Origin: Escherichia phage ECO95 1-6-1
Length of the DNA stretch: 58,949 bases
Strand: one strand, 5' to 3'
Sequence record: OR845257
Part shown: one piece after another, positions 7,253-11,822 of the stretch
How positions within the stretch are numbered: position 1 is the stretch's first letter
How the letters are laid out: each line of letters starts with the position of its first letter
Program-made: the position numbers and the translations under genes
The notes under the pieces: generated by a model
Databases searched by the model: none
What the model saw: only the letters and a program-made list of their open reading frames with translations
Told to the model about the DNA's origin: nothing

Positions 7253-7546
7253 TCAGATAAACGCTTTTAACAGCACGTTAAGCATCGCATTAGCGCGTAC
7301 AGTGGCAACGGCAAGACGCGCGGCCCCGTCCATTTTGTACAGCGTCACACGGAAAGCGCGCGCCCGGTCATCCCACGTTAGATCCGCATCGGCCCGGGTA
7401 AAAGTCACGCCATCCGCATGACGTTTAAAACCTTTTGCCCGTGCGATCCCGGCATACCGATCCGCCGCCATACGTGCGGCCGTTAAGCGTTGCGCCTTAT
7501 CCATTGTGGGCCGCCTTGCGGTCATTGTGGGCCGCCTTGCGGTCAT
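7253..7546 (-). CDS. hypothetical protein (N-terminus encoded by a 21-bp tandem duplication, MTARRPT x2)
   Basis: 97-aa ORF; last gene before the leftward terminator. Confidence 0.4.
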   Translation of the reverse strand: MTARRPTMTARRPTMDKAQRLTAARMAADRYAGIARAKGFKRHADGVTFTRADADLTWDDRARAFRVTLYKMDGAARLAVATVRANAMLNVLLKAFI

Positions 7547-7769
7547 TGTACCGCGCTAAAAGATCAAGTGACGCCGTTTTACGCACATTGCACGCAAGCC
7601 CGGCGCGGGCGCTGTACGCCACGATCGCCGCCCTTGTCTCTAACTGGTCATCGGTCTGGCTTGCTAACACGTCCATAATCGGCGCGGTGTCATCGTCCAG
7701 CCATCGCAACGCATAGATCCCATTATCACGTATCAGGCGACGCGCGGCGCGGTATTGGCCTTTATTCAT
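7497..7769 (-). CDS. hypothetical protein (C-terminus encoded by the same 21-bp duplication, NDRKAAH x2)
   Basis: 90-aa ORF overlapping the previous one in another frame. Confidence 0.4.
   Translation of the reverse strand: MNKGQYRAARRLIRDNGIYALRWLDDDTAPIMDVLASQTDDQLETRAAIVAYSARAGLACNVRKTASLDLLARYNDRKAAHNDRKAAHNG
7502..7549. repeat. 21-bp tandem duplication (CATTGTGGGCCGCCTTGCGGT x2.3)
   Basis: two exact units plus a partial third. Confidence 0.8.
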
Positions 7770-7977
7770 GGTTGCCCCCTTCTACCGCCTCGCCACGGTC
7801 ACAACGCGCGGAATATAAGCCAATGCGGCCCGGATAAGCCTCCACGGCGGCGCGGCAATCGTCATAAGAGATCCCCGCGTCAATCACATAATCATGACAA
7901 TCCGCCGCCATATTATCAGCGCCAACCGCGCCGCACATCGTCACAACGAAAAACCATAAGCCCGCCATAATCACCAC
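7762..7977 (-). CDS. hypothetical small protein
   Basis: 71-aa ORF, coupled overlaps with neighbours. Confidence 0.35.
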   Translation of the reverse strand: MVIMAGLWFFVVTMCGAVGADNMAADCHDYVIDAGISYDDCRAAVEAYPGRIGLYSARCDRGEAVEGGNHE

Positions 7978-8243
7978 CCCCGATCCAGTTTAATGACGTT
8001 AATCACGGGCGCGCCGTCGCCGTGAATGATTGAGCGGTGAAACATTTTAGCGCACACCGGACAAGCGCAAGTAGAATCCCATTGATCGCCCTTGTCACCG
8101 TTGGCGATAACGTGCAACGCCGATCCGCAATGCGGGCAAGCGTGCGACGCCAGCGGCACGCCCGCCACCATTTGACGCGCTAACCATTCCGCGTATTTGT
8201 TGAAACGCTCGACGCTTGCCACCTTGATCCCGTTAATATCCAT
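7971..8243 (-). CDS. zinc-ribbon protein (two CxxC pairs)
   Basis: CPHCGS ... CACPVC in a 90-aa ORF. Confidence 0.5.
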   Translation of the reverse strand: MDINGIKVASVERFNKYAEWLARQMVAGVPLASHACPHCGSALHVIANGDKGDQWDSTCACPVCAKMFHRSIIHGDGAPVINVIKLDRGW

Positions 8244-8254
8244 TGTGATGATCC

Positions 8255-9424
8255 TTATTTGATGAATTCGATTGTTTTGATCTGCGACGTCGTGACGGCT
8301 TGCGCGTAGGTCTTATTTTCCAGCAAATCAAGACGCATCAACCACGCGGAGCAAAACAGGCCGCTATCTGAAAAAATCACGTCTTCTGTTTTAGCGATCA
8401 ACGTCATCCCCGCCACGGTTTTAATCTTGATACGGGTCGCCGTCTTGTCATTGTTGAGCGTGGCGGCCCCGGTCGCGGCATACGTCGCGCGGGCTTGCTT
8501 GATGTATTGTTTCATGCAGCCGACGCGGACAACGTCGCGGACGTGCTCAACCGTGTTCACGTCGCGATCCAGTTCAATGACATTATGAAACGCGCCATCA
8601 ATGCAGCAGGACACGACAACGCGCACACGGAAAAGCTGATATTCTGCCGGGCTAATACGCGTCGAGATTTCGTAAAATTCGCCGTCTATTTTGTCGCGCA
8701 AGGTATGCAGCACGATCCCCGATGCGTTAACGTTGCCACGCTCAACGGCCGCGCAAGCGCGATCGACATAGTCGGCCGGGGCGGTCACATAGCCCGCTTT
8801 CACTTGCTTGATGAAATCGCTTTCCGGGTCATCCTTGCGGGCCTGCTCAACGGTCACATATTCGATCGGCGTGTCGTACAGGCTTGTCCAGTGAATATCC
8901 GGGCGCGCGTTGAGGATCTCCGCGTCATCAAGGTCTAACATCCAGTAACCGCGCTTTAAATACACGTATTCCCCGGCCGGAGTTGTTGAGCGTAAAACGT
9001 GATCGTCGGCGTCAAACGTTGCCGCGTCGGCGTCGGCGCTTGCCGCGTTCAATTCTGCATTCATCGCGATGATCTCCGCTTCAATTTCAGCGCGGGTAAA
9101 GTCGGAAAGGTTCAAAATGAAATCATCCTCGAAGCCGTGAACCTCAAAGAAAATCGCATCATTGCGGAGCTTTTGAGCGCGTGCGGCGGCTTCCTGTTCT
9201 GCGATTTCGTCGGCGGTTTTCAGTTTGCCGGAATGATCAAGCGCGCTTTCTAACACGTTTTCAAAGTTGGATTCATAAGACCAGGCACGCCAGATTAATG
9301 ATCCGCCGTCCACCTCGCGGATCTCGACTTGCGTCGAACCGTATTTATCAAAGTTGTAAGACACGGCGCGATCTGACTTGATGTTATATTTTCCAACCAT
9401 TGCAACGATTTGATCATGTGTCAT
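8255..9424 (-). CDS. hypothetical protein
   Basis: 389-aa ORF downstream of the leftward promoter at 9487-9515. Confidence 0.6.
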   Translation of the reverse strand: MTHDQIVAMVGKYNIKSDRAVSYNFDKYGSTQVEIREVDGGSLIWRAWSYESNFENVLESALDHSGKLKTADEIAEQEAAARAQKLRNDAIFFEVHGFEDDFILNLSDFTRAEIEAEIIAMNAELNAASADADAATFDADDHVLRSTTPAGEYVYLKRGYWMLDLDDAEILNARPDIHWTSLYDTPIEYVTVEQARKDDPESDFIKQVKAGYVTAPADYVDRACAAVERGNVNASGIVLHTLRDKIDGEFYEISTRISPAEYQLFRVRVVVSCCIDGAFHNVIELDRDVNTVEHVRDVVRVGCMKQYIKQARATYAATGAATLNNDKTATRIKIKTVAGMTLIAKTEDVIFSDSGLFCSAWLMRLDLLENKTYAQAVTTSQIKTIEFIK

Positions 9425-9486
9425 TTTGTATCACCTGTTTTGATAACCGTCGGCCCCATTGCCCCCGGCCCCCGAAGGGAATTTAA

Positions 9487-9515
9487 ATATAAATGATATA
9501 CGCGGCGTGCGTCAA
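9487..9515 (-). promoter_or_regulatory. sigma70-type promoter TTGACG-cacgccgcgtatatcat-TTATAT
   Basis: minus-strand -35/-10 with 17-nt spacer, upstream of gene 8255-9424; followed by a CCCUUCGGG hairpin (9471-9479). Confidence 0.55.
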
Positions 9516-9549
9516 TAACTTTTCTCTTTAATCGTCGGCCGCGTCACCT

Positions 9550-10292: not shown

Positions 10293-10306
10293 GATAAAGC
10301 CCCTTA

Positions 10307-10789
10307 TTAGTTAATTACGGATACGGATTTAAAAGGCGCACCAGTGACCGACGGGCCGCCGTGGGAATCGCGGCGGGCGATCTCTAAGTGGCAAGGCATC
10401 CAGCCGGATGACCGCCCCACGATAAAGCGGCGCTTTTCCCCGTAGGCGTCCACCACTTCCACGCGGCGACCCTCAAGGCCGACTAATTGCGGAGTAAGTC
10501 CGATGTCACAACGTCGGCCCGCTGCCAGTGCGTAGACGCGCCCGGCGTCGATCACTTTATCGCACGCGGCGAAATGCTTTTTAGTGCCGACGCGGGCGGG
10601 AATATCCAGCGCGGTGACATCGATCCTTTTAGCGCCTAAAACCATTTCAGCGGCGCGGCCTTCATTTTTAAGCCATTGCAGCACACCCGCCGCTTTATTG
10701 TTCAGCACGTCGAACCCGTAGCAGGTAAAGCCCGCGCCCGCTTTCATGACGTATAAACGTTGCTCTTTATTGATAGAATTCAGGATCAT
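10307..10789 (-). CDS. hypothetical protein
   Basis: 160-aa ORF in the leftward operon. Confidence 0.55.
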   Translation of the reverse strand: MILNSINKEQRLYVMKAGAGFTCYGFDVLNNKAAGVLQWLKNEGRAAEMVLGAKRIDVTALDIPARVGTKKHFAACDKVIDAGRVYALAAGRRCDIGLTPQLVGLEGRRVEVVDAYGEKRRFIVGRSSGWMPCHLEIARRDSHGGPSVTGAPFKSVSVIN

Positions 10790-10791
10790 GA

Positions 10792-10992
10792 TTAAGCCCC
10801 TTGTAACAGAAGAGTGAAAAAATTATTTGAACAGCCGATCAAACGGCCTGTTTTACGCTCGCGTAAATAAAAAGTTTTACGCCCGAAAGAATAACGGCGC
10901 TCAACCTTGCAGCGACGCCACACCGCCCGCGCGTCACGATATATAACAGCCGCAATAATTGAATAACCGATCAAGATAATAGCCATTAACAT
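10792..10992 (-). CDS. small membrane protein
   Basis: 66 aa with N-terminal hydrophobic helix MLMAIILIGYSIIAAVIY. Confidence 0.4.
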   Translation of the reverse strand: MLMAIILIGYSIIAAVIYRDARAVWRRCKVERRYSFGRKTFYLRERKTGRLIGCSNNFFTLLLQGA

Positions 10993-11006
10993 GACGCGCC
11001 CCCGGA

Positions 11007-11546
11007 TTAATTAGATTTCAGTGTGAACAGGCGATCGCCGTCGTACAGTTGCACGTAGTCCGCGATTTTCCAGCCTAAGAGATCGCCCCCCTCGCGGCAT
11101 ATTTCATTAATACGCTCTAACATAATCCCGGCCGCGTATCGTGCATTGGCTTGAATGTCTGACCCGTCGGCGACGCGTGGCGAATAGTTAACCTTGATCC
11201 CGCGCGGCACTAACCACGAATAAGCGCGCATAAACGCCGGGCCTTTATTTGTTGCCGGGCAAAACTTAACAGTGATTGACATATCCAGCGGCGCAACCTC
11301 CGGCACATAACCAATAATAAACGTCCAACCGTTATCTTTACCACGCACGCCCGGCACGGATGGCGCGCTATTCACGATCCCCCAACTAACTGATTTATTC
11401 GCGTTGAGTTTAGCGATCAACTTTTCAGCGGCCGCGCGGTGATTTTTCTCACTGGATAACTCCGCGTCATATTCTGAACGCGTCCAGCCATTCCAAGATC
11501 GGGCAATAATTTTACCGTTATGATAATTAGTGTTAATAGTTTGCAT
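11007..11546 (-). CDS. hypothetical protein
   Basis: 179-aa ORF in the leftward operon. Confidence 0.55.
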   Translation of the reverse strand: MQTINTNYHNGKIIARSWNGWTRSEYDAELSSEKNHRAAAEKLIAKLNANKSVSWGIVNSAPSVPGVRGKDNGWTFIIGYVPEVAPLDMSITVKFCPATNKGPAFMRAYSWLVPRGIKVNYSPRVADGSDIQANARYAAGIMLERINEICREGGDLLGWKIADYVQLYDGDRLFTLKSN

Positions 11547-11564
11547 AGTTATCCCCTTATTAAA

Positions 11565-11822
11565 TTAGATGTTACGTGTAAACTCAGCGGTGAAAATTTC
11601 GCGTCCATACTTCTGATAAATGACGCGTAATAAATCGGCATCATTCAAAATATCGGCATCGGTGAATTCCTTCCCCCATGAAAAAGAAAGCGTGCTCACC
11701 CGGTTAACGTGGATCGTGCTGCGTAGTTCGACCGTCGCGTCGCCGTTTTCGTCGCGCTTGATGGCAATCTTTAACCAATGTTGCAACGTCTGACCCTTGA
11801 TCGCGTTGTATACCTTTTCCAT
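11565..11822 (-). CDS. hypothetical protein (first gene of the leftward operon)
   Basis: 85-aa ORF downstream of the promoter at 11888-11916. Confidence 0.5.
   Translation of the reverse strand: MEKVYNAIKGQTLQHWLKIAIKRDENGDATVELRSTIHVNRVSTLSFSWGKEFTDADILNDADLLRVIYQKYGREIFTAEFTRNI

Follow-up and report, generated by a model that had tools for sequence, protein, structure and literature searches.

In the pre-early (first-step-transfer, FST) region of phage T5 and the class I region of T7-like phages, small and mostly orphan genes, small membrane proteins among them, lie at the genome end that is presumed to enter the cell first, and are transcribed by the host RNA polymerase. Plasmid leading regions and CP4-type islands hold many small establishment or anti-defense genes on first-entering DNA, and for plasmids an enrichment of such genes in the DNA that enters first is established (Samuel et al., 2024; PMC11541004). 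The locus considered here, a leftward operon of eleven genes (g1 to g11) in a 58,949-nt sequence from Escherichia phage ECO95 1-6-1 (record OR845257; the whole stretch analyzed is called “the window” below), is of this already familiar kind, an early orphan-gene operon at a phage genome end. Its closest counterparts are genes 64 to 75 of phage Chi and 064 to 074 of phage Siskin, which have the same genes in the same order, the same two promoters and terminator, and the same terminal repeat array. The Chi group (genus Chivirus, family Casjensviridae) consists of flagellum-dependent Salmonella phages in which the operon lies at the right end of the standard map; the same block is present in about 100 Chivirus genomes, with its genes labeled hypothetical.

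The T5 FST region shares a relative of g11 and the T7-like class I region a relative of g1 (gene 003 of phage POP72), two of the eleven genes in all; unlike these regions, the window operon has no two-step DNA transfer, no terminal repeat, and no homologs of A1/A2, Ocr, SAMase, or the protein kinase. The g4 family and DUF905 (found in g7) also occur in mobile elements of the conjugative and CP4 kinds, an association by neighborhood alone, whereas the operon lacks single-stranded DNA promoters, ArdA, KlcA, PsiB, and Ssb. We lean toward reading the region as an accessory arm that a Chi-like phage expresses early, its products being host-interaction factors for takeover, exclusion of further phage, or counter-defense; here the early timing, the entry order of the DNA end, and every biochemical role are what we infer.

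Results

The operon as a unit at the genome end

A preliminary description made from the sequence had proposed a discrete leftward unit of eleven genes, 11822 to 7253, with a promoter at 11888 to 11916, a second internal promoter at 9487 to 9515, and a terminator near 7157 to 7182. This anatomy was confirmed. All eleven open reading frames (ORFs) are on the minus strand at those coordinates (Table 1), each beginning with ATG behind a GG-rich Shine-Dalgarno sequence. Neighboring genes overlap or are separated by 0 to 20 nt, except for a 125-nt gap between g6 and g7 which holds the internal promoter. Three starts that were ambiguous in the raw ORF list were set according to Siskin: g6 at 9771 (not 9822), g9 at 7968 (not 7977), and g11 at 7504 (not 7546). 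Substitutions relative to Chi and KFS-SE1 fall at codon positions 1/2/3 in the numbers 130/92/437, a pattern indicating that the genes are real, translated, and under purifying selection. No Rfam families were found within 6300 to 12700.

Positions 7100 to 12000 are 98.7 to 98.9% identical to Salmonella phages vB_SenS_BPS1, ER19, and Siskin, and match 114 phage records, nearly all of them Chi-like; the corresponding Siskin genes are without exception annotated as hypothetical, and relative to Chi (NC_025442) the region is gp64 to gp75 minus gp68. The GenBank records of both Chi and Siskin stop at window position 6713, and the next twelve minus-strand bases are GGTGCGCAGAGC, which we take to be the cohesive end given in the Chi genome announcement. 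The window is thus a circular permutation of the genome, and the operon is the rightmost block of the standard map, read toward the right end; its last gene lies 540 bp, and its terminator about 445 bp, from the mature end at 6713. In lambda-type cos phages the right end is packaged last and ejected first, and by this analogy the operon-bearing end would be the first into the cell. Several short records (OR844587, OR844956, OR844960, OR847543, and similar ones), whose names assign them to phages of Escherichia, Enterococcus, Listeria, or Staphylococcus, match this Chivirus region at up to 100% identity (complete over 4625 bp in OR844587); these are probably contig fragments, either mislabeled or from mixed lysates.

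A shared promoter class

Both promoters, P1 ahead of g1 and P2 in the g6-g7 gap, lie inside 77-nt cassettes that continue into the leader and are 82% identical to each other. The first 19 nt of the leader occur only twice in the window, once behind each promoter, and contain the leader hairpin, which thus lies close to, or right at, the point where the transcript is predicted to begin. P1 and P2 score as sigma-70-type (TTGACG-18-TACATT and TTGACG-18-TATATT, 9 to 10 of 12 consensus positions). A promoter scan of the whole 7-kb region gave no enrichment over shuffled sequences, and support for P1 and P2 therefore comes from their duplication, from conservation (P1 is conserved in Chi, KFS-SE1, STP11, and BPS2), and from membership in a larger promoter family. 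The terminator after g11, at 7186 to 7157, was missed by a simple consensus terminator scanner and detected by RNA folding. Since no terminator was seen in the sequence between g6 and P2, transcripts from P1 probably read through into g7 to g11, with P2 adding to the expression of these genes.

The family is defined by the pattern TTGACNYACGYCGCGTRTA, which the window matches exactly at five places; with as many as three mismatches allowed there are eleven matches, where chance would give 0.39. Besides P1 and P2, the family comprises three promoters on the plus strand (12512, 15824, and 21237), the strand of the arm with annotated exonuclease/RdgC, PAPS-reductase, and ThyX genes. In all five the spacer holds a 13-bp palindrome, YRYACG-N3-CGTRTR, and in P1 the symmetry extends to TTGA-N3-ACGC-N-GCGT-N3-TCAA. 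Promoters of the same design stand ahead of the corresponding operon in Redjacvirus Stilesk and of the leftward arm in Yonseivirus SAKp15. It is mainly because this promoter class is common to the recombination/nucleotide-metabolism arm that one may reasonably infer early expression of the operon. The palindrome would be a putative operator, through which one regulator could act on the entire early class.

Between the terminator and the DNA end is an array of four further copies of the operator-like 19-mer. They lack -35 and -10 elements, are oriented opposite to P1 and P2, and lie at a distance of 230 to 435 bp from the mature right end. Chi, KFS-SE1, STP11, and BPS2 have conserved the array, and Stilesk has two similar palindromes close to its right end (locus L004, 9399 to 9660). 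Among the first genes of the divergent arm no regulator candidate with a clear helix-turn-helix (HTH) or other DNA-binding domain was found, only DUF7609: the first gene of that arm (12583 to 12954, plus strand) encodes a DUF7609 protein (E 3e-35), and another DUF7609 gene lies near a g4 homolog on an unrelated 38-kb contig (locus L022, 3263 to 3616). Two other features may be mentioned. Between P1 and the divergent promoter at 12512 are five 33-nt repeats (12215 to 12461; CTTACTTGAAAAAG.TACCCGGTTG core) spaced 43 to 71 nt apart, which look like iterons and could be an origin or a regulator-binding array. Directly downstream of the promoter at 21237, within the first ~40 nt of the transcript, is a CCCCG-loop-CGGGG hairpin followed by a T-run (21237 to 21305), which looks like a terminator or attenuator.

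Conservation and turnover

The preliminary description had called for a comparison of accessory-gene turnover among related phages; genera differ from one another in gene content, and small genes also come and go within Chivirus. This genus retains all eleven genes, at 63 to 98% protein identity to Chi. Chi gp68 (67 aa), present in Chi, KFS-SE1, STP11, and BPS2, is absent from the window and Siskin; KFS-SE1 has an extra 66-aa gene ahead of g1; and BPS2 has an in-frame deletion within g7. The window has a private feature, an exact 21-bp tandem duplication at the g10/g11 junction (7502 to 7543) that is absent from Siskin, Chi, KFS-SE1, STP11, and BPS2; it gives g10 seven extra residues (NDRKAAH) and places a second in-frame upstream ATG before g11.

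Outside the genus far less is retained. Yonseivirus keeps g3, g6, both ends of g7, g9, and g11, while Redjacvirus keeps only g6, both ends of g7, and g9, in unchanged order, so that g6, g7, and g9 alone are common to the three Casjensviridae genera examined. By this retention pattern the operon is a conserved trio, g6-g7-g9, set within exchangeable cargo.

Relatives of individual genes

For four of the eleven genes (g1, g4, g7, and g11), relatives lie at sites that hold genes for host takeover or establishment: a T7-like class I region, ParB/relaxase cassettes, the CP4-6 island, and the T5 FST region. It is the location of these relatives that points to a host-acting role.

The relatives of g1 outside Casjensviridae include POP72 gene 003. 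This Autographivirus carries it in its class I early region, where the S-adenosylmethionine (SAM) hydrolase follows three genes downstream and the phage RNA polymerase also comes after it.

The g4 family is large, with at least 261 clusters at 43 to 57% identity over the full length, and its members are found in 100 to 150 kb phages, 35 to 43 kb elements, and integrative/conjugative elements. Residues C94, H134, W130, and S127 are invariant in the alignment, and C23 and E136 nearly so; C94 precedes a predicted helix and H134 is in a strand, and g4 may be an enzyme. A profile of 38 homologs found no match in the PDB. Two of six neighborhoods sampled, both in integrative/conjugative elements (L017, 4317 to 7460; L021, 5351 to 8522), contain a cassette of the form DUF2958 - orf - g4-like - orf - ParB_N/HTH_ParB. 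One of the pair adjoins NikA, a relaxase, GmrSD, and a UvrD-like helicase, and the other a CBASS operon and an integrase; the remaining four neighborhoods are phage regions crowded with small genes of unknown function.

The N-terminal domain of g7 scores 14.3 bits against Pfam DUF905 with the full-length protein and 17.1 bits alone, below the gathering cut-off of 22.3. All nine g7 relatives match the same model, the best (E 2.8e-6) above the cut-off as judged by the relation of E-value to bits. The domain has the motif G..WRAW.(F/Y)E.D and, in an AlphaFold2 (AF2) model, the Sm-like alpha-beta4-alpha fold of E. coli YkfF/DUF905 (PDB 2HJJ), whose gene sits in the CP4-6 island; on this modeling it is a divergent DUF905/YkfF domain. 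Unlike in YkfF, it is fused to about 320 more residues. The model is poor past residue 130, its confident part being the Sm-like domain and helices, and no statement is therefore made on the middle and C-terminal parts.

A remote relationship of g11 to a T5 pre-early gene is indicated by a pairwise BLASTP match to a 70-aa protein of the FST region (39% identity over 56 aa, E 3e-8). Against phrog_4227 the hmmscan E-value is 3.2e-5, but two of seven family members match, and the hhalign probability is 31%. The RefSeq record of T5 (NC_005859), and hence PHROGs, labels this relative (tag T5.014; L012, 5087 to 5645) “endonuclease nicking abasic sites generated by host Ung.” Matches of g11 to giant BNR/fn3-repeat proteins in a representative library were rejected as repeat or composition artifacts. 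For g5, the similarity to Klebsiella, Xanthomonas, and Pectobacterium phages is partial.

Domain searches and public annotations

Scans against Pfam, NCBIfam, PADLOC, and PHROGs returned only DUF7300 (g1), sub-threshold zinc ribbons (g8), sub-threshold DUF905 (g7), and PHROG families without a function; for g9 the scan covered Pfam alone, at E <= 0.1, and found no match. PDB sequence searches with single g1, g2, g4, g5, and g7 sequences gave nothing significant. The gene content had been described beforehand as small membrane proteins, a zinc-ribbon protein, and several larger proteins without recognizable motifs, and it proved to be so: g3, g6, and g9 are small membrane or secreted proteins (hydrophobic or signal-peptide-bearing), g8 is the zinc ribbon, and the 160- to 389-aa proteins have no curated family matches apart from the sub-threshold DUF905 in g7. 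Homology to core replication or structural genes would have spoken for a different kind of region; no structural, replication, or lysogeny domain was found in any product in these scans and searches. For ten of the eleven proteins, the Pfam/NCBIfam models of known anti-restriction or anti-defense proteins (ArdA, KlcA/ArdB, Ocr, SAMase, and others) were not matched at E <= 1. The Lar restriction-alleviation protein was considered for g8 and rejected: TIGR03655 scores 15.2 bits (E 0.02) against a cut-off of 39.6, and is one among many generic zinc-ribbon cross-matches.

Public product names for these genes contradict one another and have no backing in the scans. Homologs in OP535471 and OP535472 (STP11 and SEP13), OM025231, KPN N54, and other records are called, without support, Cro/CI repressor, XRE regulator, KilA anti-repressor, RecT, serine recombinase, transposase, tail protein, head morphogenesis protein, capsid (maturation) protease, or tail component K-like. 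The lysogeny labels of the STP11 record were rejected, Pfam and NCBIfam scans having found no repressor HTH, integrase/recombinase, or anti-repressor domain. A list of PIN1/PIN2 virion proteins from mass spectrometry includes evident non-structural proteins, and is unusable for excluding virion association.

Table 1. Features of the operon and its surroundings, in window coordinates (gene sizes with Siskin starts)
Feature	Coordinates	Strand	Size (aa)	Description	Evidence
g1 (Chi gp64)	11565..11822	-	85	DUF7300	PF23974 E 6.5e-27
g2 (Chi gp65)	11007..11546	-	179	tandem pair of beta-beta-beta-alpha-beta-beta domains	
g3 (Chi gp66)	10792..10992	-	66	membrane helix at N-terminus and very basic tail	kept in Yonseivirus
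g4 (Chi gp67)	10307..10789	-	160	large conserved family	261 clusters, alignment
g5 (Chi gp69)	9768..10292	-	174	N-terminal ~80-aa domain common to other phages	phrog_4781 E 8e-14
g6 (Chi gp70)	9550..9771	-	73	hydrophobic membrane protein, probably two helices	conserved in Yonseivirus and Redjacvirus
g7 (Chi gp71)	8255..9424	-	389	DUF905/YkfF-like Sm-fold N-domain (1-70), helical linker, genus-specific middle, conserved C-terminal ~55 aa	
g8 (Chi gp72)	7971..8243	-	90	CxxC...CxxC zinc ribbon	many sub-threshold zinc-ribbon matches
g9 (Chi gp73)	7762..7968	-	68	signal-peptide-like N-terminus, acidic, contains cysteine	conserved in Yonseivirus and Redjacvirus
g10 (Chi gp74)	7497..7769	-	90	C-terminus extended by 21-bp tandem duplication	
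g11 (Chi gp75)	7253..7504	-	83	basic, related to T5 pre-early 70-aa protein	BLASTP, phrog_4227
Promoter P1	11887..11916	-		TTGACG, 17/18-nt spacer, TTACAT/TACATT	spacer palindrome ACGCCGCGT
Internal promoter P2	9486..9515	-		copy of P1 in g6-g7 gap; TTGACG, 17/18-nt spacer, TTATAT/TATATT	
P1 leader	11840..11886	-		CCC-UUCG-GGG hairpin, 11880-11871	shared 77-nt cassette, RNA fold
P2 leader	9439..9485	-		same UUCG hairpin, 9479-9470	shared 77-nt cassette, RNA fold
Intrinsic terminator after g11	7157..7186	-		GGCCGCC-loop-GGCGGC and T6	-18 kcal/mol, z = -2.8
Terminal array	6942..7148	+		four promoter-less copies of operator-like P1/P2-type 19-mer ACGCACGCCGCGTATATCA, between terminator and DNA end	
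Mature right DNA end	6701..6713	-		next twelve minus-strand bases GGTGCGCAGAGC	Chi/Siskin records end at 6713

Discussion

The reading of the region as an early accessory arm implies the following course of events. Host sigma-70 RNA polymerase would initiate at P1 and a second time at P2, the duplicate cassette of promoter and leader, which would add transcription of g7 to g11; both transcripts would open with a small UUCG hairpin, and transcription would halt at a strong intrinsic terminator about 445 bp short of the right cohesive end. The 13-bp spacer palindrome would let one regulator control P1, P2, and the three opposite-strand promoters. The products would be neither virion nor replication parts, but small, mostly independent host-interaction factors: envelope-targeted peptides (g3, g6, g9), a zinc ribbon (g8), a DUF905/Sm-like protein (g7), a possible enzyme (g4), and a T5 pre-early relative (g11). 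Their most likely job would be to condition the newly infected cell, whether by host takeover, by exclusion of further phage, or by counter-defense. A bolder version, which we consider rather improbable, is that g4 is a new enzyme used by mobile elements on cell entry, for example a counter-defense hydrolase, and that the terminal palindrome array is a timing device, a decoy either titrating the early-class regulator or loaded with it.

Several points weigh against this account. No product significantly matches a characterized anti-defense or host-shutoff protein, and a literature search found no transcriptome or functional study of these genes. Guilt by association reaches only four of the eleven. 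EcoRI restricts a Chivirus by 5 to 6 logs (full sensitivity), and AbiK has a partial effect on it (PMC12671086). On the T5 relative of g11 the tag is T5.014, which was reported non-toxic in the original study, where the Ung-dependent abasic-site nickase is named T5.015 (Mahata et al., 2021); one of these labels may be shifted by a gene. Finally, g6, g7, and g9 keep their order in three genera. This is less what one expects of a free-floating island than of a conserved function, and part of the operon may thus serve a step of the phage's own cycle instead of manipulating the host.

The last point is the basis of the main rival, which we regard as unlikely but worth keeping in view: that the trio is a conserved envelope-associated machine of the phage's own cycle, the remaining genes being exchangeable cargo. 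Such a machine might exclude superinfecting phage, anchor the incoming or replicating genome to the membrane, or belong to a step connected with entry by way of the flagellum or an efflux pump. In its favor, g6, the N- and C-terminal modules of g7, and g9 have the same order in Chivirus, Yonseivirus, and Redjacvirus, with g1, g2, g4, g5, g8, and g10 not found in the latter two; the g6-g7 gap is kept in all three genera; and P2 gives the block a promoter of its own. However, the trio has no homology to a known exclusion or membrane machine, and the middle of g7 is exchanged from one genus to the next and missing from BPS2 through an in-frame deletion, suggesting tolerance to change. The proposal is moreover compatible with early expression, and largely overlaps the accessory-arm reading.

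Considerably less probable is that these are replication or recombination accessories, working with the iteron region and the opposite arm. The five 33-nt iterons just upstream of P1, the promoters in common with the recombination/nucleotide-metabolism arm, and the label of DNA-nicking protein on the T5 relative of g11 would all fit. However, beyond the generic zinc ribbon no nucleic-acid-enzyme or DNA-binding domain was detected, and sister genera, while retaining the replication arm, lack over half of the genes.

We give very little credence to a role in structure or assembly, with g7, for example, as a tail or head-morphogenesis protein. A family labeled “tail protein” (phrog_18953, the label being annotation only) does match g7 residues 161 to 389, and single GenBank records name a homolog “head morphogenesis protein,” “capsid maturation protease,” or “tail component K-like.” These labels disagree with each other and have no virion domain support in Pfam, NCBIfam, or the PDB; what the g7 model shows with confidence is an Sm-like domain and helices; and cos, the terminator, and a different promoter class separate the operon from the structural module. 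A lysogeny or pseudolysogeny control module, as the product names in OP535471 and OP535472 would have it, can practically be dismissed: HTH_3/XRE, KilA-N, RecT, resolvase, and transposase models are unmatched even at E = 1, and the “XRE regulator” is the 73-aa membrane protein g6 and the “serine recombinase” the 83-aa g11, which refutes these names at the sequence level.

The accessory-arm reading thus agrees in kind, though not in strength, with the preliminary description, which had suggested an early host-takeover or anti-defense island and is partly supported. The shared promoter family, the gene turnover, and the relatives of four genes favor a real early accessory, host-interaction module; with no characterized anti-defense protein matched, the anti-defense role is unproven.

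Conclusion

Public records give these genes several unfounded names (repressor, recombinase, RecT, tail protein, protease). We know of no family member with a characterized early program, and Chi-like phages are candidate therapeutic and typing phages for Salmonella. The g4 family shared with conjugative elements, the link between g11 and T5, and the palindromic operator with its terminal array are leads worth following up, and the operon, as a promoter-to-terminator unit, is a clean target for deletion and toxicity screens.

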